Shown: positions 22,284 to 63,011, counted from the first letter of the stretch. The stretch is 64,000 nt of DNA from Candidatus Bathyarchaeota archaeon (GCA_963720565.1 CAVRFW010000007.1:32001-96000); one strand, 5' to 3'. The notes: generated by a model not told the origin, from the letters alone. Made by a program: numbers and translations.

Positions 22284-22350
22284 TAGTCAAGGAATTTTGA
22301 CTAGAAAAGGGCGTGTTTAGTCAAGAGACCTTTACAAAAACCCCTTTTAG
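22284..22350 (+). promoter_or_regulatory. Motif A (TAGTCAA-N6-TTGACTA ... GGGCGTGTTTAGTCAAGARACCTTTACAAAAACCCCTTTTAG), reference copy
   Basis: Other copies at 24647-24688, 35981-36055, 42785-42856, 45756-45796, 48542-48585, 49897-49916 (half), 51897-51910 (partial), 53128-53196, 56268-56328 and 59211-59256; most end 30-34 nt before a start codon. Confidence 0.8.
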
Positions 22351-22380
22351 CACCCAAACCTGCATAGTAGAGGAACAGAG

Positions 22381-23866
22381 ATGAGCAAAACTGCAGGGTT
22401 GATGTTTGTTCTTGTCCTCCTCGTACCGCTATGCGTTTTCCCTATTCAACCAGCCAGAGCAGAATCAGGAACAATAATTGTCACCAACGTTAACCAGCTA
22501 GCAAACGCTGTTTATGGTGCGACTGATGGAACCACGATAATCGTGAAAAACGGAACCTACGAGTACCAAGAAAGCCAAACACTAGTTATAAGCAGGTCTA
22601 TCTCGCTCGTGGGTGAAGACCCCGATAGCACAATTCTAAACCTGTATCCCCATCGGATAGATCCGCCTTATCCTTACTCTACGCCTTACTATGAAAATGC
22701 AATCGAGGTTCAAGCCAGCGATGTCTTACTATCAGGTTTTACAATAAATAGCGTCGGTGGCTCCCTCTCGGCAAGTGGAAGCAGAGTCCAAATAACGGGC
22801 AATATGATAAATACGTATGTGGTTGCAGAGGGTCGTTACCAGAATATTTCCTTGAATGTTCTAACTGAAGGAATTCAAAATTATGGAACCTACAACAACA
22901 TCGAAAGAAACACAATCATAGGGCATGGCATTTGGGCAGCTGGCGACTTCAGCATAATCAATGGAAACAACATCACGGACTGTAATACTGAATCCGAGGG
23001 TTATGGAATAATGCTGCAGTGGAGTGGAAACACTGTTTTCGGCAATTTCATAGAGAACTGTAATCACGGTGTGAGTGTTTTGGGGACGAGTAGCTTGAAC
23101 AACATCTATTCAAACATGGTTGTCAACAACGTTGGAGGGCTTGAACTTTTTGGTGAAGGAAGCAACAACGCTTTCCATGACAACTACGTAGCCGACAACA
23201 CAATATGGAGTCCTGCTGAGTCACACATACTTGAGGACTGCAGGAGAAAACAACACAGTCTACCATAACAACTTTGTTAATAATGCTGAACAAATTAACA
23301 GTCGTTCTACCTATTACGGTAACTATGGTTCTGAAGCAGCAATCTATCCAATTGGAGACTATGATAATGGCAAGGAAGGTAATTACTGGAGTGACTACAC
23401 TGGAAAAGATGCTGACGGCAACGGAATAGGCGACACTCGCTATTTTAAAGACCTATACCCGCTTATGTACCCGTGGGGTGCCCCGCTTATTTCTATTTTA
23501 GGCTTGGAGAATGCGACATACTCTGGAAATGTTTCTCTGAACTTCAGGGTTAACAAGCCGACTTCTTGGATGGGTTATAGCCTTGACGGATTTTACAATG
23601 TAACCATTGATGGAAACTTGACTCTCACGGGCTTATCAAGCGGTTTGCACAGCATAACTGTATACGCAAAGGACATGTTTGAAAACGCTGGAACTTCAGA
23701 AACAATTTTCTTCACTACAGCGGAAAAACCAGAACCTGAGCAAGATTCTTTCCCAACAACACTACTCATCGGATCCATAATTGCCGTAGTGGCTGTTGTC
23801 GGAGTGGGGTTGCTGGTGTTGTCGGAGTGGGTTGCTGGTTTACCTCAAGAAACGCCGGGGGATTAG
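22381..23866 (+). CDS. Secreted NosD/CASH beta-helix + Ig-like protein with CTERM tail (frameshift ~23210; tail disrupted by a duplication)
   Basis: Signal peptide, parallel beta-helix repeats, GNYWSDY..DGIGD and DSFPTTL tail. Confidence 0.75.
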
Positions 23867-23872
23867 GAATCC

Positions 23873-24646
23873 ATGAGTGGCAAAGCGTTAGTATTGGCAC
23901 TGATATTCGTCTTCTCTGTTTCATTGATCGTTAGCGTGCATAATATTCAAGTTGCTACCGCTAATTTCTTTCCGGGTAATGCCCTGCTGATCTCTTCTCC
24001 AACTTCTGGAATGGTTTACGCAAACACTTCTATTCCACTTATTTTAGTGGCTAATGTTGCTAATCCTACCCCTGAGATTGTGAGCCTTGCTTACAGTCTT
24101 GACGAAAACCCAAATGTAACTCTGACCAATTTGAACAAGACACTTCGCCCCCCAGGTCACATTGACGGTTCCCAATTCTTTGCAGAACTAGTTTTGGAGA
24201 ATCTGTCTGAAGGCAACCACACGCTCAAAGCTTATTCGCAGGATGATTCTGGCGTGCAGATGTCAGCGTCAGTGGAGTTTATGATTGATACAAACTACCA
24301 GACGCCACTTTTGGTTCTGTCCCCCCAAAACATTACCTACTACACAACTGAAGTTCCTCTGACTTTTGTTTGCAGTGAGGAATTCACGTTTGTGTCTCCT
24401 GATTACGTGCTAGACGGTATAGGCATGGGACCTATTTCCGGGAATTTGACTTTGACTGGATTGTCCCTTGGTAAACATGAAATAACAGTTATCGTTTGGA
24501 CTGTGAGGGGAGTTTTTTCTCAAACAGTCTACTTCAGCGTTTCGGAGCCAGAGCCTTTCCCAACCCCGCTGGTCATAAGCTTCGTAATCGCATTGATTGC
24601 TGTTGGCTTGGGTTTGCTGGTTTACTTCAAGAAACGCAAGCGTTAA
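23873..24646 (+). CDS. Secreted tandem Ig-like protein with PEPFPT-CTERM tail
   Basis: Signal peptide; YSLD..NVT..LSEG.H module twice; EPEPFPT...GLLVYFKKRKR. Confidence 0.75.
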   Translation: MSGKALVLALIFVFSVSLIVSVHNIQVATANFFPGNALLISSPTSGMVYANTSIPLILVANVANPTPEIVSLAYSLDENPNVTLTNLNKTLRPPGHIDGSQFFAELVLENLSEGNHTLKAYSQDDSGVQMSASVEFMIDTNYQTPLLVLSPQNITYYTTEVPLTFVCSEEFTFVSPDYVLDGIGMGPISGNLTLTGLSLGKHEITVIVWTVRGVFSQTVYFSVSEPEPFPTPLVISFVIALIAVGLGLLVYFKKRKR

Positions 24647-24722
24647 GCAGAATTGTTGAGTCAATAAAGTTTTACAAAAACGATTTTATCACGCCGTCAC
24701 CCCGATGTAACTGGGAACAGAC

Positions 24723-24833
24723 ATGAACAAGAATGCGGGAGTGTTAATCGTTCCGGTTCTCCTAACTTCGCCTTTCTATGCGCAGCCTAATGCAGCTTTT
24801 GCTGCCTCTGGAGGTGAAGAACGCAATGAGTAA
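24723..24833 (+). pseudogene. Orphan signal-peptide head of an array gene
   Basis: MNKNAGVLIVPVLLTSPFYAQP...AAS* lies 34 nt after motif A; its gaacagacatga start context is identical to 36082. Confidence 0.55.
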
Positions 24834-25536
24834 ACTCAAAGAGATTGCACTATTCATCGTCATAACTGTAATAATTGCTGTACCCCTCTACTTCCTTACC
24901 CTCACTGGCTACAGCTACGGTACTACTGACAAGTGGATCTTGATTGCGTTGAACGTGGTTTTCCTTGCCCTCTTTCTCCTGTTTCTACCCTTCAAGAAGA
25001 AGGTGGCGCGTCTGCCCAACAGCGTCTATCTCGCCTTCATACTAGCTCTCTACGTGGAGATGTATGGCATCCCACTGACAATGTTTCTGTTCGCAGGCTT
25101 CTTCGGACAAAACAACATATTCTCGCTCGAGTTCCTCCTCGCAGGCGTGGTAGGTCAAGAAACGTTCTACCGCGTTTTCAACACCTACATCTTTCCCCTG
25201 TCCAAAATCATTATGGGCATAGGCATACTGCTGATCATTTACGGTTGGAGGGCAATCTACAAGGGTAGAAAAGAAGGCAAGCTTGTGACCACAGGCCTCT
25301 ATGGCGTCATCCGCAACCCGCAATACGTAGGCTTCCTGTTGATCACTCTGGGGTTAAATGTGATGTGGCTGACCATAATCACGCTCATACTCTGGCCTAT
25401 ACTGGCAGTGCTTTACTGGCAGCTCTCAAAAAGAGAAGACAAAGACATGGAGAAACAGTTTGGGCAAGAATTCGTAGATTACAAGAATAGGGTTCCAGGC
25501 TTTTTCCCACGCTTGCGGAAGCGTTCTGCCTCTTAG
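24826..25536 (+). CDS. Isoprenylcysteine carboxyl methyltransferase / PEMT family membrane protein
   Basis: LVTTGLYGVIRNPQY and E....FGQEF.DY..RVP; GGAGGTGA RBS. Confidence 0.85.
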   Translation: MSKLKEIALFIVITVIIAVPLYFLTLTGYSYGTTDKWILIALNVVFLALFLLFLPFKKKVARLPNSVYLAFILALYVEMYGIPLTMFLFAGFFGQNNIFSLEFLLAGVVGQETFYRVFNTYIFPLSKIIMGIGILLIIYGWRAIYKGRKEGKLVTTGLYGVIRNPQYVGFLLITLGLNVMWLTIITLILWPILAVLYWQLSKREDKDMEKQFGQEFVDYKNRVPGFFPRLRKRSAS

Positions 25537-25644: not shown

Positions 25645-27831
25645 ATGAAAGTAGTACACGAAATAATGTTAACATTGTTGCTGACCAGCGTGTTAACATT
25701 ACCTTTCTCCGTTGAACTCGTTCGATCCGAAGCATTAACCATTGTCATTATGGCTGATGGGACAATTGCCCCTTCAACAGCACCCTTTCTTCGGGATGGA
25801 AACCGTTACGCGTTTACCGGCAACGTTTTTGGCGAAATTGTGGTGGAGAAAAGCAACGTAACAGTGGATGGAAACGGGTATACTCTTCAGGGTTCAGGAA
25901 GCGGAAGTGGGATCAAACTGGCAGGAGTAAATGGCGTCACGATACAGAACACAAATATCCAAAGCTTCACATCCGGCCTCTGGTTTGACGGTTCTTCTGG
26001 AAACACAGTCTTTTCAAACACAATAGCAAACTGCAGCTATGATGGAATTCGTCTTGACGGATCTTCTGGCAATACCATCTCCAGCAACACAATTAAAGAC
26101 AACTATCAGAGCATCCGCCTTCATAGCTCTCCAGACAACAACATCTACAGGAATGTTATAACAAACAGCTACCACGCCGTCTTTTTGCACAGTTCCTCTG
26201 ACAACACCATCTCCGAGAACACGATAACAAACATTTACCTTAGAGGCTTCGAACTCTACAGTTCTTCAGACTTCAACACTATATCCAAAAACAACTTGAC
26301 AAACAGCTTCAGAAGCATATGGCTTTCTGTTTCTTTCAATAACACTTTTTTTGGTAACACAATAACAGGAAACAACTACGAGGGTTTCTCCTTCTACGGT
26401 GCATCCAACAACACCATTTCCGGAAACACCATAACAAACAGCAACTATGACGGCATTTCCCTCTACGGTTCTTCGGAATCTAACACAATAATCCAGAACA
26501 CCTTCAGGGACAATTATCACGGAATCAACTTGCATGATCACTCAAGATTCAACGTGATTTCCGAAAACACGATAACGAACAGCAACCGCGGCATCCACCT
26601 TCATGGATCTTCACAACTCAACACCATCAATGGAAATACCATAACAAACAATTACGAGGGCATTTACCTCGACAGTTCTACAGAGCTTAACACAGTTTCC
26701 CAAAACATTATAACCGACAGTAACCGCGGCATATACCTAGATGGTTCCTCCAAAAATAGTATTTCCAATAACACCTTAACAAGCAACACCGAAGGAATCT
26801 CATTGTATGGCTCTTCTGAATTAAACGCCATCTCTGGAAACATAATAACAAAGAACGACTATGACGGCATCCACATCTACGATTCCCGATACAACACAGT
26901 CTCTGAAAACATCCTGACTGAAAACTATAATGGCATCTATCTAGATGGTTCCTCCAACAACACTGTTTCCGCAAATTCTATAGAAAATAATGGCAATGAT
27001 GGCATATGCCTAGATGATTATTCTGACTCCAACATTGTATCTGGAAACCTATTGAGAAACAATGGTTACGACGGCATCTATATCTATGGTTACTCAAAAT
27101 TCAATTTCATCTCAGCTAACACGATAAGGGACAATGGCTACGACGGCGTCTTCCTTTATTGTTCTGACAACAACACAATCTCCCAGAGCGTGATAGCGAA
27201 CAACTTCAGAGGGATCTTTTTCTGGAATTCTTCAGGAAACATCATCTCTGGAAACGCAATAGCAGACAACCGCTATGACGGCATGTGCCTCCACGGCGCT
27301 TATAACAAAATCTTCGGAAATAACATAACAGACAGCAATTACGACGGCATTGGCCTTCACGGTGCATTCAACGTAATATTCGGAAACAACATATCGGGCA
27401 GCGACTATGACGGCATCCACATCTATGATTCAGTTTACAACACGGTTTTCCATAACAACCTCGTCAACAATACACTTTCTGCTCGCTTATCAGACAGCAC
27501 CAGTAGTTTGGACGGAGGCTATCCTTCAGGCGGTAATTATTGGAGCGACTACACAGGAATCGATGAGTATTCTGGCGCTAATCAAGATAAGCCGGGTAGC
27601 GATGGCATAGGCGACACCCCATATGTTATCGATGAAAACAACCAAGACAATTACCCGCTAATGGCGCCATTTGCAGGCGATAACGACGACATAGTGTTGC
27701 CCACTGAAGAAGTGTTTCCGTTAGCGCAGGTTGTTGTTGCTTCTCTAATTTTTGCTGCTGCTGGTGTGGTTCTGCTGGTTTATTTCCAGAAACGCCAGAA
27801 GGACAAGAATTTATGCAGAACAAGGCAATAG
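25645..27831 (+). CDS. Large secreted NosD/CASH parallel beta-helix protein with CTERM tail
   Basis: More than 20 GIxL..S..N.I..N repeats, GGNYWSDY and VFPL..VYFQKR. Confidence 0.85.
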   Translation: MKVVHEIMLTLLLTSVLTLPFSVELVRSEALTIVIMADGTIAPSTAPFLRDGNRYAFTGNVFGEIVVEKSNVTVDGNGYTLQGSGSGSGIKLAGVNGVTIQNTNIQSFTSGLWFDGSSGNTVFSNTIANCSYDGIRLDGSSGNTISSNTIKDNYQSIRLHSSPDNNIYRNVITNSYHAVFLHSSSDNTISENTITNIYLRGFELYSSSDFNTISKNNLTNSFRSIWLSVSFNNTFFGNTITGNNYEGFSFYGASNNTISGNTITNSNYDGISLYGSSESNTIIQNTFRDNYHGINLHDHSRFNVISENTITNSNRGIHLHGSSQLNTINGNTITNNYEGIYLDSSTELNTVSQNIITDSNRGIYLDGSSKNSISNNTLTSNTEGISLYGSSELNAISGNIITKNDYDGIHIYDSRYNTVSENILTENYNGIYLDGSSNNTVSANSIENNGNDGICLDDYSDSNIVSGNLLRNNGYDGIYIYGYSKFNFISANTIRDNGYDGVFLYCSDNNTISQSVIANNFRGIFFWNSSGNIISGNAIADNRYDGMCLHGAYNKIFGNNITDSNYDGIGLHGAFNVIFGNNISGSDYDGIHIYDSVYNTVFHNNLVNNTLSARLSDSTSSLDGGYPSGGNYWSDYTGIDEYSGANQDKPGSDGIGDTPYVIDENNQDNYPLMAPFAGDNDDIVLPTEEVFPLAQVVVASLIFAAAGVVLLVYFQKRQKDKNLCRTRQ

Positions 27832-28889
27832 CACTAACACTTATCTTGTCTCTCTTTTGCCTACCGCCTGTTAGAGCTTTTGAGGTAACGGCCACTTTGA
27901 CTTTGGAGAATCCAGGCGGTTATTACGGCGTGGCTTATGATTCTGGCAAAGGAGAAGTCTTTTTGACCAATGTGGATTTCGATTTGGTCTACGTAATTTC
28001 AGACAGTAACAATGCAGTAGTCGCAAGTATACCCGTGGGGAGACAGCCTGTGGGAATAGCTTATGATTCTGCGAAGGGTGAACTATTCGTTGCCAATTAT
28101 GGTTCCAATTCGGTTTCGGTTATTTCGGACAGTAACAATACCGTAATTGCAGACATACCCTGTGGGACCGCGCCCTTTGCCGTGGCTTATGATTCCGGTA
28201 AGGGCGAAATCTTCGTGTCCAACTATAATTCTAGTTCTGTCTCGGTGATATCGGATAGCACCTATACCGTAGTCGCAAACATAAGCGTGGGAATTCAACC
28301 CTGTGCTCTAGCCTATGATTCGGGTAAAGGAGAGATATTTGTGGGGCATGCTGGCTGCAATCAGGTTTTGGTGATATCGGACACCACTTACGCCGTTGTC
28401 GCAAACATAACTGTGCAAGATCCCTTGAGTTTGGTTTATGATTCCGGTAAAGGAGAAGTCTTTGTGGCTAACTATAATTCAAGTTCGGTCTCAATTATAT
28501 CAGACGCTACAAACCAGATTGTTGCAACCGTAAATGTGGGAGCAAATCCCGTAGGTATCGCGTATGATTCGGGTAATGGCCAAGTCTATGTGGCAAATTA
28601 CAATTCGAGCTCGGTCTCAGTGATATCCGACAGTAACAATACTGTAATTGCAAATGTAGCTCTGGAAAGCCATCCGCAGGGTATAGGTTTTGATTCTGGT
28701 AAGGGAGAGATATTTGTGACTTATTCTGAAAGCAACAGGATTTCGGTGATATCAATTTCCTCTATCCCACTGCCCGGTCCATCCGTTCCGGAGTATCCAA
28801 TATGGACGATTCTGCCTTTGACTGCCATATTACTAGGGGTCTTGTGTGCTGGCTTGCTGGTTTACGTCAAGAAACGCCACAAGCTCTGA
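27813..28889 (+). CDS. Secreted YVTN/YncE beta-propeller protein with PEY(PEF-like)-CTERM tail
   Basis: Seven AYDSGKGE.FV.N repeats; VPEYP...LLVYVKKR. Confidence 0.85.
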   Translation: MQNKAIALTLILSLFCLPPVRAFEVTATLTLENPGGYYGVAYDSGKGEVFLTNVDFDLVYVISDSNNAVVASIPVGRQPVGIAYDSAKGELFVANYGSNSVSVISDSNNTVIADIPCGTAPFAVAYDSGKGEIFVSNYNSSSVSVISDSTYTVVANISVGIQPCALAYDSGKGEIFVGHAGCNQVLVISDTTYAVVANITVQDPLSLVYDSGKGEVFVANYNSSSVSIISDATNQIVATVNVGANPVGIAYDSGNGQVYVANYNSSSVSVISDSNNTVIANVALESHPQGIGFDSGKGEIFVTYSESNRISVISISSIPLPGPSVPEYPIWTILPLTAILLGVLCAGLLVYVKKRHKL

Positions 28890-28979
28890 TTGTATGCTGA
28901 CTGCGTTCCTGTGGCGGAACAATGTGTTCCTTGAGTAGAACTATATAGGATCTTTACCAGTGTATTGGAGATGATTGCA

Positions 28980-29837
28980 GTGCGAAAGACAACAAAGTTT
29001 CTAAGCTTCATTATCTTAGGATTACTTGCTGCTTCATTGCTTGATTTTCAATCTGTAAAAGCACAATATGCTGATGATGGAAGACCATTCCCCCTTGCTT
29101 CACCAATTGAAATAACTTCACCATCTAACAGCACATATGATTCAGGGTTATTGATGCTCGATATCAGTTTCAAATTGATGCTCAATGTTGAAAAGACAAA
29201 CATAACAGTGCTTTACAGCCTGGATGGAAAAGAAAACACCACTGTCGCAGTATCAACAAAACTCTTTCCAGTAGAAACAACAATAACTTATGCAAACGGC
29301 TCAACACAAACTGGCATTTCATCACTATTCTCTTATTACATCATCAATGCAAGCGTGGCTTTGCCAGAACTCCCTGAAGGTTTTCACAGCATATCAGTCT
29401 ATGGAAGATATGAGCATGTTGGCGGCTCCAATTACAATGTGCATGATAGTAGCAGGGTTTGCTTTACAATCAATAATGGTAAGGCTCCAGTCATATCAAG
29501 TCTAAGTCTTGAAAACATAACTTACAGTCAAGATAATTTGAACTTGAATTTTACGGTTGACGAGTCAACTTCATGGATGGGTTATTGTTTGGATGAACAG
29601 GCTAACGTTACTTTGACTGGGAATTTCACGCTCACACAGCTGCCCTATGGCTCACACACAATAACTATTTACGCAAATGACACGGTTGGAAACATGGGCT
29701 CCTCTGCAACGATCAACTTCAGCATAGCACAACCGTTCCCAACTGCACTTGCCCTGTCATCCGCAGGCGTAGTGGCTATTGTCGGTTTGGGTCTTCTGGT
29801 TTACCACAAGAAACGCTACAAGCTCAAGATTACATGA
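28980..29837 (+). CDS. Secreted Ig-like protein with CTERM tail
   Basis: Signal peptide, SWMGYCLD Ig module and QPFPT...LLVYHKKR. Confidence 0.75.
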   Translation: MRKTTKFLSFIILGLLAASLLDFQSVKAQYADDGRPFPLASPIEITSPSNSTYDSGLLMLDISFKLMLNVEKTNITVLYSLDGKENTTVAVSTKLFPVETTITYANGSTQTGISSLFSYYIINASVALPELPEGFHSISVYGRYEHVGGSNYNVHDSSRVCFTINNGKAPVISSLSLENITYSQDNLNLNFTVDESTSWMGYCLDEQANVTLTGNFTLTQLPYGSHTITIYANDTVGNMGSSATINFSIAQPFPTALALSSAGVVAIVGLGLLVYHKKRYKLKIT

Positions 29838-29964: not shown

Positions 29965-30795
29965 TCAATCAACAATGGGAACAAGTGTCCCTGAGCGAAT
30001 GTACCCAGAGGGTTCAGTAACGACTATCTGCCAGACATACTTGTAAACCACACCTTCCCCGTAGACAGGAGAGTAATCTGACGGCGGAACAGTAATCGGA
30101 CTAATATCGACCACAATTGGCCCAGTGAAGTTATGTCCATCAAGGTCAGTAACCTGTTTCAACGTCCTCAGATAGGCCCCCACTCTCATGCCCTGAAGTG
30201 AAGTCTTGTTCCAACCGCCAGCTCGTAACCCTAGCTGCAGAGCACGATACACTGACACAGAAGGTGAGAATGAAGAATTAACGTTTATGTAGGGAATCAC
30301 TCCGAATTCATCATAGTACGCCATTGCCTCAACGTCGATTGCTTTCAAACGCTCATTTTCCCTCTGAAGGTCAAGAGCCTGAGTGTACTCGTAAAAAGCG
30401 AATGCTGTAGTGACTATCAACAAGGCTGAAAGCAACAGAGCCCCTGATTTCAATCCGACTTTCTGGATGGAGAGACGCCGATTAGCTCCTTTAAGATTCC
30501 CTGTCTCTCTGACAGATGACACGTTTTCCACTGTCTGGATTGTGAGCAAAGCATCTTTTCCTTGTTCGGAAAGGCAGTATTTTCCGTATTCGTCGGTCTT
30601 TATTAGTCCATTGAGCTTGGTCAGGTGATGTTGAAGATGCCCGCTGCTTTCAATGGATACCTTCTTTTTTAAATCAGCAAAGCCGAGTGCTCCTTCACTT
30701 AGAACCTTCAAGAGAACTATGCGAGTTGGATGCCCTAGTGCGTCAAATACCTCTGCACGCTGGCGGTCTTTTTCGACATCTTCGGGTTTTTCCAT
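29965..30795 (-). CDS. Membrane-anchored winged-HTH (ArsR-like) regulator with extracytoplasmic domain
   Basis: FDALGHPTR...LQHHL HTH, one TM helix and a C-terminal domain. Confidence 0.8.
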   Translation of the reverse strand: MEKPEDVEKDRQRAEVFDALGHPTRIVLLKVLSEGALGFADLKKKVSIESSGHLQHHLTKLNGLIKTDEYGKYCLSEQGKDALLTIQTVENVSSVRETGNLKGANRRLSIQKVGLKSGALLLSALLIVTTAFAFYEYTQALDLQRENERLKAIDVEAMAYYDEFGVIPYINVNSSFSPSVSVYRALQLGLRAGGWNKTSLQGMRVGAYLRTLKQVTDLDGHNFTGPIVVDISPITVPPSDYSPVYGEGVVYKYVWQIVVTEPSGYIRSGTLVPIVD

Positions 30796-31522: not shown

Positions 31523-31638
31523 AGTTACTAACTGTGAACTAGGTTATATAAAATGTTTTGTAAGAAATAAGAATACTTAAATAATAATGATTACATCTTT
31601 GTTATGAGTTAAAGTAATAGGGAATGGAGATAGTGAAA

Positions 31639-48541: not shown

Positions 48542-48616
48542 GCAGAATTGTTGAGTCAAGAAACCTTTACAAAAACTCCTTTTAGCGCGAAACAAGCTAG
48601 TATTGTTGGTGTTGTT

Positions 48617-53227: not shown

Positions 53228-54625
53228 ATGAGTAGAACTGCAGCAGTACTGATAGTTCTGGTTTTCCTTGCGTCAATTCTCGCCATACCAGTTAACCCCG
53301 TTTCTGCAGCATCTCCGGACTCATGGACAGCAAAAACGCCGATGCGGGAAGCAAGAGGCGGCTTAGGCGTTGCCGTAGTAAATGGCAAAATCTACGCAAT
53401 AGGAGGCTCCACAGCAAGCGGACCATATCGCCCAGATGCTTTCGCCGGTGACTTTGTTGGAACAAACGAGGAATACGACCCAACAACAGACACGTGGACC
53501 ACCAAAGCTTCAATGCCAACTCCAAGAGACTACTTCGCCATAGCCGCTTACAAAAACAAAATATACTGCATAGGTGGAGCTGTGGGTTTTAGCGTGGATG
53601 AAGTATCTGGATTTCACTCATACGTTACTTCTGGAGTGACAGAGGTGTATGATACAATCACGAACACTTGGGTTGCCAAGAAATCCATGCCCGATGACGG
53701 AATGCAGATTCAAGCCCATGTGGTAGACGGAAAAATCTTCGTTATGGATTGGTCTTTGGTGTATGTTTATGATCCTGAAAAGGATTCGTGGTCTGAGAAG
53801 ACACGGATGCCTCCGCCTTATCCTTGGTCTTCGCCGGTCTCCGCTGTCGTAGGCAAGAAAATTGTTGTCACTGGTGAGTTTAGAGTCGGATGGAATTACA
53901 CTTCAGCCCAGAAAGTCATGGTTTACGACACGGAAACAGACGGCTGGAGCGAAGGCGAGACTGGTCCAGTCCTTGTTGTTAATGATGCGGCTGTGGCTAC
54001 AGCTGGTGTTAACGCTCTTCAAAGGATTTACGTTTTAGGCTTAAACGCTGGACAGTATCCTGCGCCTTCTACTAATCAGGTTTATGATCCAGAGGCTAAC
54101 GCTTGGACAGCAGCCACTGCGATGCCTACGTTTCGTGTTGATTTTGGTGTTGCAGAGGTTAATGATGTCTTGTACGCAATCGGAGGGTACTCTTACACAT
54201 CAGGCATACACGGTACTGTGACACCAACCGCGGTGAACGAGCAGTACTTCCCCCTCGGTTATGGGGTTCCGCCTGAAATCAATGTTGTTTCGCCAGTGAA
54301 TCAGAAATACAATGGGTCCAGTGTTTCCCTGATTTTCACCGTGGGCAAGCAGGTTAGTTGGGTGGGTTATAGTCTCGATTGGGTGGAAAACGTGACGGTT
54401 GCTGGAAATGCCACTCTTGCTGGATTGTCGAATGGTTTGCACAGCGTGGTGGTTTATGCCAATGACACCTTCGGAAACATGGGAGCATCAGAAATTGTGT
54501 CTTTCACGGTAGCTGTTCCAGAGCCTTTCCCAACAACCCTTGTCATCGTCTCCGCAATCGCAGTAGTCTTGGTTGGTTTGGGGTTGCTGATTTACTTCAA
54601 GAAAGCAAGAAAAAACTTCGCTTAG
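53228..54625 (+). CDS. Secreted Kelch + Ig protein with CTERM tail
   Basis: KIYAIGG...YDP..D.W repeats and PEPFPT...IYFKK. Confidence 0.85.
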   Translation: MSRTAAVLIVLVFLASILAIPVNPVSAASPDSWTAKTPMREARGGLGVAVVNGKIYAIGGSTASGPYRPDAFAGDFVGTNEEYDPTTDTWTTKASMPTPRDYFAIAAYKNKIYCIGGAVGFSVDEVSGFHSYVTSGVTEVYDTITNTWVAKKSMPDDGMQIQAHVVDGKIFVMDWSLVYVYDPEKDSWSEKTRMPPPYPWSSPVSAVVGKKIVVTGEFRVGWNYTSAQKVMVYDTETDGWSEGETGPVLVVNDAAVATAGVNALQRIYVLGLNAGQYPAPSTNQVYDPEANAWTAATAMPTFRVDFGVAEVNDVLYAIGGYSYTSGIHGTVTPTAVNEQYFPLGYGVPPEINVVSPVNQKYNGSSVSLIFTVGKQVSWVGYSLDWVENVTVAGNATLAGLSNGLHSVVVYANDTFGNMGASEIVSFTVAVPEPFPTTLVIVSAIAVVLVGLGLLIYFKKARKNFA

Positions 54626-54846: not shown

Positions 54847-56157
54847 CTATAGGTTTCCAGTATCACTGGGTTGTTTTCGTCTTCTAACAATTACCGCGAT
54901 AATCAGCAACGCTGCTATTGTGATGACGAGGGCAGACAGTACTATTGCAGTTGGGAAATTCCAAGGTTGAATGTTTTCAGGGAGCCCGCCGAGTATGTAG
55001 CCAACGTAGACAGGGTCATGTTGAATCTGCATGCCATCCCACACTGGAAAACAGATCCTGTAAATCAGCGAGGACGATTGGTAATCCATGTTGAAGTCTT
55101 GCCATGAACCTCCGAATAGTGCTTCAAGTTGTAGTTGGTCTCTGAAGAACTCCATCCCATTAACGGGGTTTACCCGGATTAATGGCGGGACATCGGAGAA
55201 TGCAGCGGCTTCTGCTTTCGTCTCGTAGGTTTCAACGTGTGTTTGATGAGTCTGGTTGGCTTCGCCACGGTTGAGCGTGTAGTTTCCGCCGAAGACGAAG
55301 TCATAGGCTTTGGCGCCGTCGACTTCCACCTGAGCCAGTTCAGCATCAATTGCTGAGTCTTCTGCAGTTGCCGAATTGAATTCCTCACCGTCCACGTAGG
55401 TCGTGTACGGCTTCGAGGTGTACGTGGCTGTCGCGTACAGCAGGGCCAAGCTTAAACCTTCCAGCGAGAGCTGCGAAGAATCATGAATCAACAGGCTAGT
55501 TATTGGTCCGATGTCGAAGCTGGTCTTTAGGTTTGAGACGTTTCCGTTAACGGTGAAATCGTAGCTCAGGGTTATGTGGCCAAAGACTAATGAAGCTACG
55601 ACGCCGACGCGATGGCTTGCGTTTTGAAGGTATCCGTGGGTGTTCTCATACGTGAAGCTCCAACGGTAATGCGGATCCGAGCCTTCCATGGCCTTCTGGA
55701 TCGGGGTCATGCTGTAGCTGTCGCTCATGTTAACGTACATGTAATATACTATTTCGCTTTCGCCCGAAGTTTGCGGGACTCCATCACCGTTAAAGTCCCG
55801 GTAGACTTCCAGTTCGGAGAGGGCGCTTGCGATGAAGACTTGAGTGCCGTCTGCCATGAAGAAGTGTTGCCCCAAAAGATTAGCCACGGGAACGGGATAG
55901 CCATAGTCTGGAGTAGTGTAAATCGCAAAGTTGATCACCTGAGTGCCGGAAACGCTGACCCAATCGTACCATATGAGCAGAGGCGAATTTTCAGGAACAA
56001 CAGTGCCATTCGTGTATTCGACACCACTAACAGGTATTGTAGTGGACGCTTCCGCCAAACCAATGATTGGGGATTCCGGAACCACAGCAAAACACGAAGT
56101 CACCAACAGCACCGCAGCAACCACTAAGACAGAAAACCTCAAATTTCGCTTAGCCAT
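54847..56157 (-). CDS. Secreted/surface protein with a divergent TM tail (NFPT...RRRK)
   Basis: Signal peptide, C-terminal I.HDP motif and TM helix with basic tail. Confidence 0.7.
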   Translation of the reverse strand: MAKRNLRFSVLVVAAVLLVTSCFAVVPESPIIGLAEASTTIPVSGVEYTNGTVVPENSPLLIWYDWVSVSGTQVINFAIYTTPDYGYPVPVANLLGQHFFMADGTQVFIASALSELEVYRDFNGDGVPQTSGESEIVYYMYVNMSDSYSMTPIQKAMEGSDPHYRWSFTYENTHGYLQNASHRVGVVASLVFGHITLSYDFTVNGNVSNLKTSFDIGPITSLLIHDSSQLSLEGLSLALLYATATYTSKPYTTYVDGEEFNSATAEDSAIDAELAQVEVDGAKAYDFVFGGNYTLNRGEANQTHQTHVETYETKAEAAAFSDVPPLIRVNPVNGMEFFRDQLQLEALFGGSWQDFNMDYQSSSLIYRICFPVWDGMQIQHDPVYVGYILGGLPENIQPWNFPTAIVLSALVITIAALLIIAVIVRRRKQPSDTGNL

Positions 56158-56362
56158 TTCTGTCCCCAAAATAAAATAGGTAACTGAACATTTAGGGTTT
56201 TCTGGCTAAAACAAAATCAGAAGACAAAAGAAAGTACAGTAGTCCCAGTTAAAAAATCCTACGCGCAGGAAATTTGACTATAAAATGGGCGTGTTTAGTC
56301 AAGAAACCTTTACAAAAACCCCTTTAAAACACAGCCACCAAACAATACATGGCGAAAAAAAC

Positions 56363-57847
56363 ATGAGCAAACACGCTGCAATTCTCCTTGCACTAATCTT
56401 ACTCACTCCACTACTTGTAGCGCCGGTTCGGCCTGTCTCTGCTGCTACGTCGGATTCTTGGACGACTATGGCTCCTATGCAGGTTGCGAGATGCGATTTG
56501 GGCGTCGTCACGTTAGGCGGCAGAATATACGCAATAGGCGGAAGCACAGAAAGCGGATACATACCGAACACCGTTGGAAACAACTACACAGCCAAAGGAT
56601 GGATATCGAACTTCAATGAAGAATACAATCCGGCAATAGGCACATGGGCTTTCAAGAAGCCAATGCCCACTCCCAGATACGAGTTTGCGGCAGCTGCTTG
56701 CCAGAACAAGATCTACTGCATAGGCGGTGTGGTTGACTGGCATGTTGGATACTATATTAACCGCACAAAGATCAATGAAGTTTACAACCCGGCGGCTGAT
56801 ATATGGGAGAAGAGAGCATCTGTGCCTTTTAGCCCAGAGGGTCAGGCAAACGTTGTTGGTGGCAAAATCTATTTGGTCGGAGGAGGCGAAACAGGAACGT
56901 TAAACCAAGTCTATGACCCTGCAGCCGACTCTTGGACCCTCGGAGCTTCCTTGCCGGAGAAAGTCTCATTTCAGGTATCTGTTGTCCTCGACGGCAGAAT
57001 ATACGTCAGCGGATTCCTTCAATCCTTGGGAAACGAGTTCCTTGATTCTAAGAATTATGTCTACGACCCGCCAACTGACACTTGGGCCTCGTGTGCCGCT
57101 CTTCCAGCCGACACTTTCAGCGGCGAAGGTGTCCCATGGAGGGGGAACTGGTCGTCGGAAGCTGCCGGTGCAACAACAGGAACGTTGTCTTTAAAACGGA
57201 TCTACGTTTTTTTCACGCAGTATGTTTATTCAGGTCCACTTCCGAATCTGGTCTACAACCCGGTTAACGACTCTTGGTCTCGTGGCGCTGATGTCCCCAC
57301 AAACCGTGAAGATTTCGGCGTTGCTGTCTTAGATGACATGGTGTATCTGGTTGGAGGAAAATATCTTGAGTATCCGTTTCCTGATGACAATTACTTCACA
57401 GTAACACCATTATCGACTAATGAGAGGTATACTCCGTTTGGTTATGGGGTGCCAGACCCCTCTCCCGTGAAATTCTTTGACAGCATTGCCCCAAAAATCA
57501 CAATTACGTCACCAGAGAACAAAACGTACAACACGGACAGTGTCCTCTTGAACTTCACAACTAGTGAACACGCCGCCCAAATACTGTATAGTCTTGACGG
57601 ATTGGAAAACGCGACGTTAAGCGGGAACATCACTCTTTCTGGATTGTCAAACGGTGTGCATGACTTGATTGTCTACGCCAATGACACTTCTGGAAACACT
57701 GGAGCCTCAGAAACGCTATTCTTCACGATCGCAAAGCCAGAGCCTTTCCCAACAACACTACTCCTCGGCTCCGCAATTGCAGCAGTGGCTGTGGTTGGCG
57801 TTGGTTTGCTGTTTTACCTCAAGAAACGCCGGGCAATTCCTCATTGA
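56363..57847 (+). CDS. Secreted Kelch + Ig protein with CTERM tail
   Basis: Kelch repeats and PEPFPT...FYLKKR. Confidence 0.85.
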   Translation: MSKHAAILLALILLTPLLVAPVRPVSAATSDSWTTMAPMQVARCDLGVVTLGGRIYAIGGSTESGYIPNTVGNNYTAKGWISNFNEEYNPAIGTWAFKKPMPTPRYEFAAAACQNKIYCIGGVVDWHVGYYINRTKINEVYNPAADIWEKRASVPFSPEGQANVVGGKIYLVGGGETGTLNQVYDPAADSWTLGASLPEKVSFQVSVVLDGRIYVSGFLQSLGNEFLDSKNYVYDPPTDTWASCAALPADTFSGEGVPWRGNWSSEAAGATTGTLSLKRIYVFFTQYVYSGPLPNLVYNPVNDSWSRGADVPTNREDFGVAVLDDMVYLVGGKYLEYPFPDDNYFTVTPLSTNERYTPFGYGVPDPSPVKFFDSIAPKITITSPENKTYNTDSVLLNFTTSEHAAQILYSLDGLENATLSGNITLSGLSNGVHDLIVYANDTSGNTGASETLFFTIAKPEPFPTTLLLGSAIAAVAVVGVGLLFYLKKRRAIPH

Positions 57848-57939: not shown

Positions 57940-59226
57940 GTGAAGAATACAGCGTTAGTAATGACACTAATACTGGCACTCCTAACGTCACTAATGTTTG
58001 GAGTGCAGCCTGTTAAGTCAAGTCCTAAAACCATTGTTGTCCCTGAAGATTATTCCACAATTCAGGAGGCTGTCAGTCACGCTGCTGACGGCGACACAGT
58101 GCTGGTGAAAAACGGAATCTATCCAATGGATGAAAACACTACAATTGTTATAAGCAAAACTCTGCACCTAGTCGGAGAAGACCCTGCAAAAACAGTGATT
58201 CTTGGAGTCTCCAGCAATCAATATGACAGGGGTGTCGCAATTAGGCTTGCAGCCCCAAACATAACAGTCTCAGGATTCACTATAACAGACTTCAGGGTGG
58301 CGATTGCGTTGGTAAACTATTTTGGAGAGCCAAATCCCTTAGGATGCAGAATAATCAATAACAACATCGTAAACAATTCTGAGGGCATCAGACCTCAAAG
58401 AAACGACCTGCTTATTTCGGAAAACAACATCACCAAGAACGGCATCGGAATAGCAGGTTACAATACAGAAAACGTCTTTGTCACTCGAAATAACATAAGC
58501 GAAAACGGGTATGGCGTAAATATTGGAATATGCAGAAACATCACGATCAGCGAAAACCAAATTTCTGATAACACGGGCGCAATAAATCTAGCCTATTATG
58601 GACCTTACTTTGTCTATGGCAATAAAATAACAGACAACAGTTGGGGAATCAGATTTGCAGAAGCCTGCAGCAACGCAACCGTCTATGGCAATAACATCAC
58701 GCAAAACGGTGTTGGAGTCGCGTTGCTTAATTTCCCAAACGCTGGAGACATAGTTGTCAGCGGAGTCGGAAACACAGTTTTTGGCAATCTGTTCCTTAAT
58801 AACACTAGGCAAGTAGCCAAGGAAGAAAGCAATTACAACTATCCAAACACGACGAGAATGGGCACAGACATTGTCTCATGGGATAACAGCACCGTAGGCA
58901 ACTACTGGAGTGACTATTCTGGACTGGACTATAACAATGACGGAATAGGCGATACAGCATACATCATAGACGAAAACAACAAAGACAACTACCCGTTAAT
59001 TTCGCCATCTGAGATGTCTCCAATTCCAAATTCCAATTCGCCTCCTTCACCAACACCCATACCTACACTGGCTCCAACACCGACTACAAGTCCAGAACCC
59101 ACACCGGAACCGGAGCCTTTCCCAACAACCTTCGTCATCGGTTCCGTAGTCGCTGTGGTGGCTGATGGTTGGTTTGGGTCTGCTGGTTTACCTCAAGAAA
59201 CGCCGTCGTTAAGCAGAAACCTTTAG
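57940..59226 (+). CDS. Secreted NosD beta-helix protein; CTERM tail frameshifted near 59165
   Basis: IVVPEDYSTIQEA and GNYWSDY; motif C DNA is present out of frame. Confidence 0.82.
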   Translation: MKNTALVMTLILALLTSLMFGVQPVKSSPKTIVVPEDYSTIQEAVSHAADGDTVLVKNGIYPMDENTTIVISKTLHLVGEDPAKTVILGVSSNQYDRGVAIRLAAPNITVSGFTITDFRVAIALVNYFGEPNPLGCRIINNNIVNNSEGIRPQRNDLLISENNITKNGIGIAGYNTENVFVTRNNISENGYGVNIGICRNITISENQISDNTGAINLAYYGPYFVYGNKITDNSWGIRFAEACSNATVYGNNITQNGVGVALLNFPNAGDIVVSGVGNTVFGNLFLNNTRQVAKEESNYNYPNTTRMGTDIVSWDNSTVGNYWSDYSGLDYNNDGIGDTAYIIDENNKDNYPLISPSEMSPIPNSNSPPSPTPIPTLAPTPTTSPEPTPEPEPFPTTFVIGSVVAVVADGWFGSAGLPQETPSLSRNL

Positions 59227-59288
59227 TCAATAATTCTTTACAAAAACTCCTTTTAGACTGAGGCTGCCCATTAATGGATGGTAATGCC

Positions 59289-60242
59289 ATGAAGAAAACT
59301 GCATTGGCATTGGCTGCAATAATGGGGTTTGTAGTCATTGCTCGTCCAACGGTTGCGATTGCAGCTGCTAATCCTATCCCTTACCCAAATACACCCAGCA
59401 CAGAATTGCCAACTCTGACTATTAGAACCCCAAAAAATTATTCTGATTACTATGCAAATAACACCTTCAAATTAGAGTTTATTATTATACAACCTGAGTC
59501 TTGGAATTCATACTACAGGGGATTTATCCCCATCATAGGATCTTACGGCACGCGCGTGTATTTGGATGGCAATGCTAACTGGAATCTTCAAAGGTCTCCA
59601 AGAAGTAACACTGTAACAGACTATGCAGCCATTTTCAGCAACCTGACTGACACTGAACATGCAGTGCACATAGTGGTTGAGGCAAGTGCATCTTACAGGG
59701 CATATTATACGAAAGATGGTGAAACTATCACAACTGGAAGAACAAACAACACCTACATCACCCAAACCGTGCATTTTCAACTAGAACCTGCTTCCAAAAC
59801 AGTATCATTCCAAAAGGATCCCCAGGTAGTGAGCAAAGACCCCTATCCAGACCCCCCAACACCTGTTCCCACTACGATTTCGCCTCAAAACACAAGCTAC
59901 ACCACAGACAACATAGCCCAATTCACGCTGCCACTATGCTTCACAATCAACGCAACTGCTTCATGGATAGGTTACTGCTTGGATAATCAATCAAGAATTA
60001 CCATTCATGGAAACAGCACTCTATCAGAATTAAGTGCAGGTCCACATAACATGACATTGTTTGCCAGCGGCACTTTTGGCAATATGGGTATTTCAAACAC
60101 CACTTACTTCAGCATAGAGCCTGCGACAGAACCAGGATCCCTCCCTGGAATTCCTGTCACGGCATATGTGAGTGTGGCAGCCACTCTCAGCATTGGCTTG
60201 CTTGTCTACCTCAAGAAACGCCGTGGGGAAAAGAGTCCATGA
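59289..60242 (+). CDS. Secreted Ig-like protein with CTERM tail
   Basis: AAANP signal end, SWIGYCLD module and LLVYLKKR. Confidence 0.75.
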   Translation: MKKTALALAAIMGFVVIARPTVAIAAANPIPYPNTPSTELPTLTIRTPKNYSDYYANNTFKLEFIIIQPESWNSYYRGFIPIIGSYGTRVYLDGNANWNLQRSPRSNTVTDYAAIFSNLTDTEHAVHIVVEASASYRAYYTKDGETITTGRTNNTYITQTVHFQLEPASKTVSFQKDPQVVSKDPYPDPPTPVPTTISPQNTSYTTDNIAQFTLPLCFTINATASWIGYCLDNQSRITIHGNSTLSELSAGPHNMTLFASGTFGNMGISNTTYFSIEPATEPGSLPGIPVTAYVSVAATLSIGLLVYLKKRRGEKSP

Positions 60243-61993
60243 AGAAGGCAGCAGTATTGTTGGCATTTAGCGTGGCGATTCTAATCTCAACACTTTCCGT
60301 CATTCAGGCTAAAGCCGAGCAGTGGAGCTCACCAGCACAAATCGTGACCCCTTGGTTGGCTAGGCAAGTTGCTCTCTCGATGAGTGCTGATGGAAGCAAA
60401 ATATTGTATTCCGCCTGGGAGGGAGAAGGAGACTGCGACATTTTCATCATCAACTCTGACGGTACCGGGGAGAAGCAGTTAACGGATAGTTCAAGGCTGG
60501 AAGGGTATGCATCAATCAGCGCTGATGGGAGCAAAATTGCCTTCTTGTCCTTCAAATGGTGGGACACTGGTGCGGGCGAACCTCTTCAGGTTGATTATCA
60601 GCTTTTCGTGGTGAATTCAGACGGCACGGGACTTAGTCGGCTGACCGATATGGAAGCGGGCATCCCGTCTATCAATGGCGATGGCAGCAAAGTGGCATTT
60701 TGCTCTGAGGGACTTCTCTATGTGGTTAACTCAGATGGAACGGGACTCAAGCAGCTAACCAACACTAGCACTGCCCTAGACCCTGTTATTAGCGGGGACG
60801 GAAGCAAGATAGCGTTTATCTACAAAGTATACGATTCTGACCCCAATGAGGAAACCAACGATCCCTATTCTGACGATTACGAGTTGCTGGTCATAAACTC
60901 TGATGGAACGGGACTGAGACAGCTGACTTTCAACCGTTACATTTACTATTTTGACACCTATCCCTCAATCAGCGCTGACGGCAACAGAATAGCTTTCTCA
61001 GATGGCCCACTTTTCGTGGTTAACTCTGACGGAACAGGACTCAAACAACTGACCAGCAATGGAACAACGAGTATACTCTTCCCCTCTATAAACGGGGATG
61101 GAACCAGGATAGTTTATTCCTCGTCTCAGTACCTGTATGGGGATAGCACTGTGACCTTTTTCTTGACTAGTACCGATGGGTCAGAATTGACCAACTTGGG
61201 ATCTTGGGGTTTTGGCGAGGTGGCTGGGGGACCTTGCATTAGTATAGACGGAAGCACTATAGCCCTCCCATTTTATCGTGAGGGAATCTATGTTAGTTAT
61301 AACATGGACAGATACAAAGATTTGAGCCCGCCCACCTCAGCTGCAGCCTATGACGGGCAGTGGCATGCCTCTGACTTCAACATCAACCTCACGGCTTCTG
61401 ACGACTTGCTAGTAGCTGCGACTTTCTACAAGATCAATAACGGTGAGACAAAAAACGTCGCTGAAGATGGGCAACCGCTCATCATTACAGAAGGTGCAAA
61501 CAACACGCTAGAATACTGGAGCAGAGATATCTCGGGAAAAATTGAACAGCACAGGCTCTTAACCGACATAAAGCTTGATAAATCAGACCCCACAGGATCG
61601 ATAACCATAAACGACGATGCCAACTCCACCTATTCCACTTCGGTCACACTTTCAATAATCGCCAGTGATGTCTCAGGCATAGCAGAAATGCGTTTCAGCC
61701 ACAATGGAACAGACTGGACAACTTGGGAAAAGTACACTGAATCCAAGAGCTGGACGCTACTTGCGGGAGCAGGAAGCAAGACCGCGTATGCCCAGTTTAA
61801 AGACAACTCTGGGATGGTTTCCCAAATCTACTTCGACTCCATCGAATTAGTCGTTTTTGAACCCACATCCACGCCACAGCCAGAGAATTCTACTGCATCA
61901 CTCGTTGCAGCTTCAGTTGGTATCGCAACAGCTCTCACAGGAACATGTCTGTTCGTTTATTTGAAGAAATTCTGCAGGAATAAGAATCCATGA
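60239..61993 (+). CDS. Secreted TolB/PD40-like beta-propeller + Ig protein with CTERM tail
   Basis: PSISADG.KIAF...VVNSDGTGL.QLT repeats and FVYLKK. Confidence 0.82.
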   Translation: MKKAAVLLAFSVAILISTLSVIQAKAEQWSSPAQIVTPWLARQVALSMSADGSKILYSAWEGEGDCDIFIINSDGTGEKQLTDSSRLEGYASISADGSKIAFLSFKWWDTGAGEPLQVDYQLFVVNSDGTGLSRLTDMEAGIPSINGDGSKVAFCSEGLLYVVNSDGTGLKQLTNTSTALDPVISGDGSKIAFIYKVYDSDPNEETNDPYSDDYELLVINSDGTGLRQLTFNRYIYYFDTYPSISADGNRIAFSDGPLFVVNSDGTGLKQLTSNGTTSILFPSINGDGTRIVYSSSQYLYGDSTVTFFLTSTDGSELTNLGSWGFGEVAGGPCISIDGSTIALPFYREGIYVSYNMDRYKDLSPPTSAAAYDGQWHASDFNINLTASDDLLVAATFYKINNGETKNVAEDGQPLIITEGANNTLEYWSRDISGKIEQHRLLTDIKLDKSDPTGSITINDDANSTYSTSVTLSIIASDVSGIAEMRFSHNGTDWTTWEKYTESKSWTLLAGAGSKTAYAQFKDNSGMVSQIYFDSIELVVFEPTSTPQPENSTASLVAASVGIATALTGTCLFVYLKKFCRNKNP

Positions 61994-62718
61994 AGAAAAC
62001 AGCCTTATTCCTCGTACTCATTCTTGGAATTATCTTAGCTCCAGCTGTCACACAAAAAGTCAACTTGACAGGAGCAAATCCCATCAACTATTCACCACCT
62101 GAGCCAGCAATTCCAGAGTTCACTTTAAAATATTCAGATAATTCCTATAATGTGGTTGGCAACTTCGTACAGAATAAATCAATAGAGATCACAATCAAGA
62201 ATCAGCCAACAGCTTATGTCCTTTGCTATAATGCTAAAGCAAAAAGTCACTCTTCTGAAAATTGGACATCCTATGAGTATTATAATAACAGTAGCTATCT
62301 TACTCCCCAGTTCTTTCTTCCAAATAGACTGTTAGCTTGGAATTCTACCATGACTGTTCTTGCTTTCGGCTTTCAGGGAAACAATGGTTCCGACAACTAC
62401 AATTTGATGTTGGGAAAAGTCAACGATGGTGACAAGATAGATTTTCAAGTTCAAGCATACATAGGGAATTGGTTTCCCGGCAGAGTAGTCAATGCCACTG
62501 CCAGCATTGATTATTGGTCATTAAATATTGATGCAACAGGCGATTGGAGCCCCACACAAACTATAACCATTCAAGAAAGTTCTATTCCAGAACCTACACC
62601 CCTACTAGAGCCTTTCCCAACAACCCTAGCCATAGTGTCTGCAATTGCAGTGGCTGCTGTGTTCGGTTTGGGTTTGCTGGTTTACCTCAAAAAACGCCAA
62701 AAGACTACGAACGCATGA
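61990..62718 (+). CDS. Secreted protein with CTERM tail
   Basis: Signal peptide, IPEFTL..., DWSPTQTITI and EPFPT...VYLKKR. Confidence 0.75.
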   Translation: MKKTALFLVLILGIILAPAVTQKVNLTGANPINYSPPEPAIPEFTLKYSDNSYNVVGNFVQNKSIEITIKNQPTAYVLCYNAKAKSHSSENWTSYEYYNNSSYLTPQFFLPNRLLAWNSTMTVLAFGFQGNNGSDNYNLMLGKVNDGDKIDFQVQAYIGNWFPGRVVNATASIDYWSLNIDATGDWSPTQTITIQESSIPEPTPLLEPFPTTLAIVSAIAVAAVFGLGLLVYLKKRQKTTNA

Positions 62719-63011
62719 AGATTTCATTTAAACTAAACTCTAAAGGATCCCCTTGATAAAGGAAGGCTATTCAAGGTGTTTCCAGTTTTGAATGCTGCTG
62801 CTTCTTTTGGCGGTGAACACGCGCTAAATTGATGAAACAATAACAGCTGTCAAGCGCACCACAAAGCCTCTTCCTAACCTACTTTCAACCTCCTATTTTG
62901 ATACAATTTGCTTGGATAGTGCGCTATAGGGAATGGACTTTTAAAGCCTGATTTACAGGAAGACAGGATTAATAGCAGTCGTAGCCATTTTTAAGAACAC
63001 GCATGACTTGC

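Follow-up and report, generated by a model that had tools for sequence, protein, structure and literature searches.

Surface proteins encoded in repeated or commonly signalled gene sets are known from several systems. In the tandem lpl clusters of Staphylococcus aureus, true paralogues carry a conserved central block and homologous recombination re-orders the genes, according to the available part of the report (Tsuru and Kobayashi 2008, PMC2568036). In PEP-CTERM/EpsH systems with the PrsK/PrsR cis-site, unrelated passengers carry a C-terminal signal made of a motif, a transmembrane (TM) helix and basic residues, together with an upstream DNA site and an exosortase-family gene, and the phylogenetic profile of the upstream site points to its regulator (Haft et al. 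2006, PMC1569441, available text). The DNA analysed here (the window) is a stretch of 64,000 nucleotides from a Candidatus Bathyarchaeota archaeon, C7:32001-96000 of the source genome G000 (2.09 Mb, 13 contigs, 89% complete; C denotes its contigs). It holds an array of surface-protein genes with constant ends, which appears to work like the lpl clusters laid over a PEP-CTERM-type regulon; what seems new is that the exchanged genes are mostly non-homologous and that the arms are promoter and anchor sequences. With a probability of roughly three in four, the locus belongs to a regulon of surface proteins, and the promoter and anchor sequences of this regulon serve as homology arms for RadA-type exchange. 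Bathyarchaeia are abundant sediment archaea, mostly uncultured, and to our knowledge little is known about the variation or control of their surface.

The array resembles the lpl clusters in its tandem surface-protein genes, in a junction between open reading frames (ORFs) that acts as a unit, and in deletion, conversion and translocation among relatives with no dedicated recombinase (PMC2568036, available part). Every unit has a conserved DNA block beyond coding need, and switches among relatives fall in this block. Unlike in lpl, the blocks are terminal (promoter/head and anchor tail), the passengers are mostly non-homologous and cargo is interleaved. The features listed above for PEP-CTERM/EpsH are all shared. 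The differences, as far as the available text of PMC1569441 goes, are that this system is archaeal, that it has an operator and a promoter like a B recognition element (BRE) and TATA box in place of sigma-54, that its candidate regulator is a single membrane-anchored winged helix-turn-helix (wHTH) protein, and that it forms long operonic arrays where mostly single-gene operons are described there.

The initial annotation had proposed about 21 co-oriented units with constant ends, and 21 are counted on the + strand between 22381 and 62718 (Table 1). Each has a signal-peptide head, a passenger, and a Pro-rich spacer with a TM helix and a Y(F/L)KK(R) tail (PEPFP-TM-KKR type), or a damaged form of these. 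The passengers are assigned by Pfam and NCBIfam to NosD/beta-helix, Kelch, YVTN, PQQ-type propeller, PD40/TolB-like, PKD and Ig-like domains, others being unassigned. They had been taken to be all unrelated; in the 17 genes tested this is true of 119 of 136 pairs, and the other 17 pairs have a domain in common. The surface genes had also been placed without exception on the + strand, which fits the 21 units but not one more surface gene (54847-56169). With a tail profile and a threshold of 12 bits, C7 has 24 matches, every one of them inside the window on the + strand; the other contigs of G000 have 12, several of them weak or broken. The three recurring motifs first described are present: the array contains motif A nine times and motif C seven times, and the tail-encoding sequence is motif B. 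They make up three recurring junction types, in which a tail overlaps the next head directly at ATGA, or is followed by motif A, or by motif C. The interleaved cargo is likewise confirmed (Fur/PerR, catalase, CorA, EamA, ferredoxin, PEMT and GYD genes), as are heads that are detached (24723, 49948) and tails that are orphaned (41875-41952, 4414-4500). The catalase has a 91% nucleotide match in G004 in a different context. Junction remnants extend left to about 3.7 kb, outside the array coordinates first given. Frameshifts affect three units, one extra base fuses two units in frame, and one tail is cut; the tail of unit 14 is joined to the 3' core of motif A via CAAAAA microhomology. Some of these breaks may be assembly errors, since the frameshift at 59165 is absent from contigs of two other sequencing runs (X2 and X4) and the same genome has other split genes.

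The DNA of the tails is more alike than their protein sequence and codon use would predict. Codon fixation was measured on 19 well-matching tails. CTG is used in 17/19 (genome share 0.17), TTG in 16/19 (0.22), GTT in 15/16 (0.37), AAG in 17/18 (0.40) and CGC in 12/13 (0.16). Over 90 nt in 17 genes, tail identity is 0.66 for pairs with unrelated passengers (n=119), 0.66 for related pairs (n=17) and 0.45 for the control. The fixed codons and the equal identities indicate that the tails are not explained by codon bias and do not track passenger ancestry. Promoter function or codon bias had been named as what might account for the motif conservation; this holds for motif A, a promoter/operator (see below), and fails for the tail DNA. 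Solo genes are relaxed at the same codons (TTG 3/9, GTT 2/5).

Two loci of other genomes, L052 and L074, are also co-oriented arrays, each with its own junction consensus (L denotes loci of relatives, which were picked by the motifs themselves). L052 packs 15 or more surface genes into 20 kb, and 12 of its 105 passenger pairs are related. Same-residue codon identity within the three arrays (the window array and these two) is 0.74, 0.65 and 0.75; between arrays it is 0.45-0.58, and ten solo genes from G001 and G003 give 0.52 (G001 and higher numbers denote other genomes). The nearest neighbour of a tail is in its own array in 26 of 33 cases, against a mean of 12.7 and a maximum of 23 in 1000 label shuffles. 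Each of the other two arrays thus carries homogenised junctions of its own. A homology arm should drift array by array and a recombinase site should stay fixed, and the observed drift fits arms.

It is highly improbable that the tail DNA is a functional nucleic-acid signal (for RNA processing, translational coupling or as a half-operator) conserved without frequent recombination. TCAAGAAAC does occur in both the tail and motif A, many genes are coupled by ATGA overlaps, and an exact 26-nt tail match is present at 9 loci in several Bathyarchaeia genomes. A signal of this kind does not sit well with the differing tail sequences of L052 and L074 or with the drift of solo-gene tails, and Rfam gave 0 matches and no shared fold was found. 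Exact matches to the tail motif (9 genome records) and to motif A (28) are all from Bathyarchaeia; the exact 39-nt tail-to-A junction has 0 matches in the genome-contig collection.

Re-ordering and exchange at the constant ends were the central proposal of the initial annotation, and gene order in the relatives, read from contigs only, bears it out. Synteny of the array is absent in all four congeners searched, where only single genes or pairs match, elsewhere. In G002 the block of PEMT and unit 3 (83% at the nucleotide level), unit 4, the unit 2 homologue and the ferredoxin lie in a different island in mixed orientation. L042 tracks 24663-27797 at 91% and departs in the TM/tail block into a motif A and a different gene. 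In L036, unit 12 (82%) is joined straight to unit 19 (86%) with the switch at the 3' end of motif A, and the 5' part of this locus also switches, at a conserved internal NosD motif. A tail swap is seen in a 732-nt contig of run X2 (record 13), which is 99% identical to 47866-48462 in unit 12, just past PEPFP, and beyond about 48462 has a different tail and then a match to the linker at 57851. The window's own junction is bridged by contigs of X1 and X4. The four switch points mapped, a small sample, are at four different places. At one chromosomal site the passenger is YVTN in L099 but another propeller in L075, and the two are alike only in the Ig and tail end; this is consistent with exchange between the A arm and the tail arm and speaks against a recent transposition. 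Solo units of G001, G002 and G003 occupy sites that are empty in G000; at least one solo site is common to different genera (L089, L123) and is therefore old rather than a fresh insertion. As far as sequence can tell, shuffling between populations is supported. A separate observation in G002 is an orphan spacer and tail with a decayed head directly behind a tRNA-Ser gene (L019:10125-10340), at a site empty in G000.

The array is unlikely to be a static island, built by old duplications and horizontal gains, with ends kept by protein or promoter function and shuffles that are old or assembly errors. Such an island would agree with motif A being wholly accounted for as a promoter, with the X1 contigs, which keep local order over 47792-49659 at 98-99%, with frameshifts and a fusion that may be sequencing errors, and with a dispersed family of about 17 paralogues in G000 that has a different tail and likewise shows DNA-level tail similarity. 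It does not account for synonymous tail positions that are fixed across unrelated passengers and relaxed in solo genes, nor for the re-joined orders, which independent data sets show at 82-99% identity. The dispersed family, taken as a control, has homologous passengers, and its Leu codon before RK varies.

This second family consists of large exported proteins with their own SLADQY...LRKK tail and a common upstream sequence (examples at C7:106672-109251, C9:7000-15400 and C13:33000-78700). It likely represents the PQQ-domain gene expansions known from Bathy-6, which are described along with variable genomic regions in the available text of PMC11697101. That report and the present data agree on large lineage-specific sets of secreted propellers and island-like regions in Bathyarchaeia. 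Its account in that text, unlike ours, is without shared tails, operator, arrays or shuffling. A literature search covering few subscription papers found no such array or operator for Bathyarchaeia; Supplementary Text S6 of PMC11697101 may cover such regions.

An integron-like recombinase acting in trans, which would excise and insert A-gene-tail cassettes at motif A, B or C, is quite improbable, and this part of the initial annotation is not upheld. Motifs A and C do hold short-spacer palindromes, the tail-to-A linker contains GTTAAGC, an attC-like core, and an exact 15-bp inverted repeat (35974 and 41131) flanks units 6-9 as a single case. The solo units at otherwise empty sites, the junction relics that bracket cargo and one intact tyrosine recombinase elsewhere in G000 would also agree with such an enzyme. 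attC sites carry RYYYAAC...GTTRRRY core pairs; none is present at any of 18 junctions, only one of the 18 folds with z below -2, and no hairpin is shared. No integrase was found on the array contig, and neither the co-occurring tyrosine recombinase to be looked for nor a serine recombinase turned up near the array. The three PF00589 matches lie next to tRNA genes, none of them on the array contig. Two are fragmentary; the third, which is intact, scores 54 bits on XerA (cut-off 220), matches only Xer-type models and has no IntI match in this genome of 89% completeness. Within the same 89%, Y1 transposase, resolvase, reverse transcriptase and TnpB were not found, and IS110 is present only as a broken remnant. 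Queries with the integrases of G000 against 87 loci of relatives gave a single 27-residue match. Switch points also vary between events, junction sequences drift array by array, motif A stands upstream of radical-SAM and Fe-S genes in stable synteny, and the solo site common to genera is old. No target-site duplication was seen by eye at the filled and empty sites, which are diverged. Motifs A, B and repeat D (see below) had 0 matches in viral contigs, and no tRNA was found in or near the array. An insertion sequence or a unit like a miniature inverted-repeat transposable element was rejected, there being one inverted-repeat case only, no target duplications, and transposase searches that were blank or gave broken copies.

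The array is not a member of the integron family. It resembles integrons and clusters of attC sites lacking integron-integrases, including archaeal ones, in its co-oriented variable genes rich in signal peptides, in its intergenic repeats and in an integrase that may be absent nearby, as described in the available text of Ghaly et al. (2022, PMC9668308). It differs in having no attC structure, no IntI, a promoter for each unit, repeats inside coding sequence and unfixed switch points. The word 'Bathy' is absent from the main text of the archaeal integron paper (PMC9668308, available part). Homologous recombination, given as the alternative in the initial annotation, is the better-supported mechanism.

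Motif A is best read as operator and promoter. About 9 strong copies lie elsewhere in the genome, and 3 shuffled genomes gave 0 matches. In all nine window copies, 61-65 nt separate the GTCAAG-N4-CTTKAC proximal box from the ATG downstream, and the TTTTA after the A-tract is probably a BRE/TATA-like element. The upstream palindrome is found at 45 of 69 unique sites, mostly 32-35 or 42-44 bp away, and a hydrophobic N-terminus follows at 45 of the 61 sites with a called start. Motif A also precedes radical-SAM and Fe-S genes, which are not surface genes, in conserved synteny. This reading is based on the fixed distance to the ATG, the phased palindromes, the non-surface targets and the co-occurrence with a regulator.

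A membrane-anchored ArsR-type wHTH protein probably reads motif A. In an order-wide set of 151 genomes from 63 genera, motif A occurs in 37 genomes of 7 genera (reversed control, 0). A full-length wHTH-TM-ectodomain homologue occurs in 42 genomes of the identical 7 genera, and 35 genomes have both; the cut for full length (E below 1e-90) was set after the results were inspected, and these genomes are kin and not independent. Regulator and motif A are divergent within about 130 bp in six genomes (G122, G134, G076, G103, G061 and G006). The candidates in G000 (C9:179022-180341 and C2:40046-41329) are membrane-anchored ArsR-type proteins with a YpeB/PepSY-like outer domain. In a structure model (predicted local distance difference test 83), a long TM/coiled helix accompanies the ArsR-type wHTH, and the outer domain has its nearest matches in YpeB and PepSY propeptides (5boi, E 9.6e-7, TM-score 0.26/0.42). 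The Protein Atlas gave only unnamed clusters for the outer domain, at 0.86-0.90. Membrane-bound one-component transcription factors that control surface structures are described for Sulfolobus acidocaldarius, where they are ArnR and ArnR1 (PMC6396743, available text). Compared by description only with that text, the present candidate differs in its ArsR-type wHTH, single TM helix and YpeB/PepSY-like outer domain.

Exported proteins that share the outer domain of these candidate regulators lie under motif A in L058, L059, L063 and L070. A variant box, GTA(A/G)AG-N4-CTTTAC, goes with small membrane genes at C9:367217-397700, C5:10600-15300 and C3:167800-170546; the first of these is an island linked to tRNA-Arg that also carries tail genes. 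An intergenic repeat of about 70 nt stands directly upstream of motif A or behind a tail in L022, L024, L030, L031 and L099 (G001, G003), among others, and was not found in G000.

The motif-TM-basic C-terminal signal is present on unrelated exported proteins, as in archaeosortase CTERM systems. The tails look like PEF-CTERM and PEFG-CTERM signals, but curated CTERM models run on 8 tails of the window and 8 of relatives reached at best 17.6 of 23 bits (PEF-CTERM) and 17.3 of 25 (PEFG-CTERM), and LPXTG_anchor had one marginal pass (16.1 vs 15.9). G000 has an exosortase/archaeosortase-family gene that passes TIGR04178 (53 bits, cut-off 23), a family widespread in the order (119 of the 151 genomes). 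The tail may be a plain membrane anchor, and it is possible that the G000 enzyme processes it.

In the preferred reading of regulon and homology arms, the array would be the core of a surface-protein regulon, with its genes brought together in one place. Motif A, with one to three GTCAAG-N4-CTT[G/T]AC operators beside the BRE/TATA-like tract, would be the start of every unit or short operon and would be read by the wHTH regulator with its PepSY-like outer domain. A Sec-type signal peptide would export the protein, and the Pro-rich spacer, TM helix and basic KKR tail would hold it. Because the same blocks of 60-150 bp are at both ends of every unit, RadA, whose gene is present in G000, could use the unit ends as arms. 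Unequal crossing-over between junctions would delete, duplicate and re-order units, and double cross-overs would exchange a passenger, head or tail within the chromosome or with incoming DNA. The same exchanges would homogenise the junctions. Selection for surface diversity may favour such exchange.

Several points weigh against this reading. RadA would have to work with short blocks (60-150 bp, 65-85% identity), and the entry of unrelated cargo is not explained. The rearrangements come from contigs of different populations and not from within one, the four mapped switch points are in relatives 82-99% alike, and the X2 tail swap could be a misassembly, since it is a single short contig. The choice of loci by motif inflates motif conservation in L036-L052 and the array-specific signal, to which codon preferences of the individual genomes may contribute, and the codon count excludes 3 weak tails. 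The regulator link is a correlation among kin. Motif A is not nearby at 4 of 7 regulator loci, nor adjacent for 2 of the 3 G000 paralogues; the regulator occurs without the motif in 7 genomes, and in 2 genomes the motif is present but a full-length regulator is not. In other genera, four genomes lack the motif but encode a wHTH-TM part that is 48-58% similar. No CTERM model was convincingly passed.

A wider reading, which we hold only tentatively and regard as doubtful, is an evolved, recombinase-free variation platform. Similarity of the promoter and sorting-signal DNA would be maintained to let any native or foreign passenger be exchanged between the A and tail arms, often enough to give cell-to-cell diversity within a population under one envelope-sensing regulator; in a stronger form, an enzyme in trans would act at motif C or the tail.

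Table 1. Features of the array and its surroundings (positions in the window)
Feature	Position	Strand	Remarks
Outlying junction relics	3695..4500	+	tail remnant and motif C (3728), archaeal histone gene (4117-4338), orphan tail (4414-4500) and decayed head
Motif A	22286..22352	+	upstream palindrome GTCAAG-N4-TTTGAC, proximal box GTCAAG-N4-CTTTAC, A-tract, TTTTA; proximal box 61 nt before ATG
Unit 1	22381..23866	+	NosD-type; frameshift near 23240; tail frameshifted via short duplication
Unit 2	23873..24646	+	Ig-like; 54% homologue with different head in G002
Motif A right behind tail, then detached signal-peptide head (24723)	24656..24833	+	
Cargo: PEMT/ICMT-family methyltransferase	24778..25536	+	accompanies unit 3 in L042 and G002
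Unit 3	25645..27831	+	NosD beta-helix; downstream neighbour differs in window, L042/L040 and G002
Unit 4	27813..28889	+	YVTN beta-propeller; VPEYP-type tail
Unit 5	28971..29837	+	Ig-like; motif C at 29836
Membrane-anchored ArsR-type wHTH protein (DUF7347, one TM helix)	29965..30903	-	distant paralogue of candidate regulator; upstream without motif A
Cargo block	31097..35655		Fur/PerR (-), catalase (+), CorA (-), GYD (+)
Motif A with upstream palindrome	35974..36060	+	
Units 6 and 7, in-frame fusion	36090..38708	+	Kelch gene with internal tail, second head 37674, NosD passenger
Unit 8	38705..40033	+	NosD; ATGA overlap at both junctions
Unit 9	40030..41136	+	PKD and Ig; motif C at 41097-41124
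Cargo ORFs	41328..42720		41328-41888 (-) and 42088-42720 (+); orphan tail about 41875-41952 in between
Motif A and unit 10	42786..44301	+	head 42888; frameshift near 43100; PQQ-type propeller; motif C at 44314
Cargo: ferredoxin and ORF	44330..45630		ferredoxin 44472-44882 (-), ORF 45091-45630 (-); three copies of genome-wide repeat D
Tail remnant, motif C (45694), motif A (45762)	45660..45800	+	
Unit 11	45829..47286	+	passenger without assignment; double motif C at 47285
Unit 12	47426..48541	+	NosD
Tail-to-A junction (motif B, linker, motif A)	48509..48616	+	common to 24614 and 59180
Unit 13	48617..49249	+	
Unit 14 and detached head	49246..50050	+	unit ends 49941; head at 49948
Unit 15	50094..51842	+	beta-helix-like; motif C at 51841
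Cargo: EamA transporter	51960..52889	+	
Motif A and unit 16	53128..54625	+	Kelch, starts 53228; 61% homologue is solo unit in G001
Surface protein with different tail	54847..56169	-	opposite strand to array
Motif A and unit 17	56260..57847	+	Kelch, starts 56363
Unit 18	57940..59226	+	NosD; tail frameshift about 59165
Motif A and unit 19	59222..60242	+	unit starts 59289
Unit 20	60239..61993	+	PD40/TolB-like propeller and Ig
Unit 21 and motif C with downstream extension	61990..62777	+	unit ends 62718

Motif C is a 10-3-10 imperfect palindrome behind the last tail of a run, with 2 further copies at 3728 and 20940, and was seen only in G000, G002, G004 and L042. Candidate roles are a terminator, a protein site or a relic, and by eye a small ORF or an inverted motif A may also be considered. 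Repeat D consists of an A-tract and GGGATTGTGCGGG(A/T)GACATCTCC, frequently followed by a tRNA T-arm-like stretch. It lies in the window at 44330-44395, 44864 and 45008 (+) and at 54812 (-), has about 20 copies in G000, is not array-specific and is widespread in Bathyarchaeia (L130-L138). The copy at C9:500810 bears an exact tRNA-Pro 3' end. Repeat D is possibly a terminator or an attachment-site relic; when it was tried as the latter, an integrase or tRNA adjoined in 0 of 9 loci and the candidate was rejected.

Some further features stand apart. The archaeal histone gene is flanked on both sides by array junction relics. A 127-nt piece of the minus-strand surface gene (54951-55077) recurs at 91% at C7:22285-22411. 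A decayed mini-array at a contig end (C10:861-3586) has two motif A sites and broken tails, and its first gene is intact in L036. Outside the array, the - strand encodes a stand-alone CAP12/Pycsar TIR-domain protein (3078-3587) and two tandem FilR1/HVO_A0261-type wHTH regulators (7001-8688).

Such arrays are probably under-counted, because short-read assemblies break at their junctions. For Bathyarchaeia, the locus would add a lineage-specific C-terminal anchor signal, whose scores in the curated CTERM models tried here stay under the cut-off, and an operator with a named candidate regulator. It may also show how surface genes that are not homologous can be exchanged with no dedicated recombinase.

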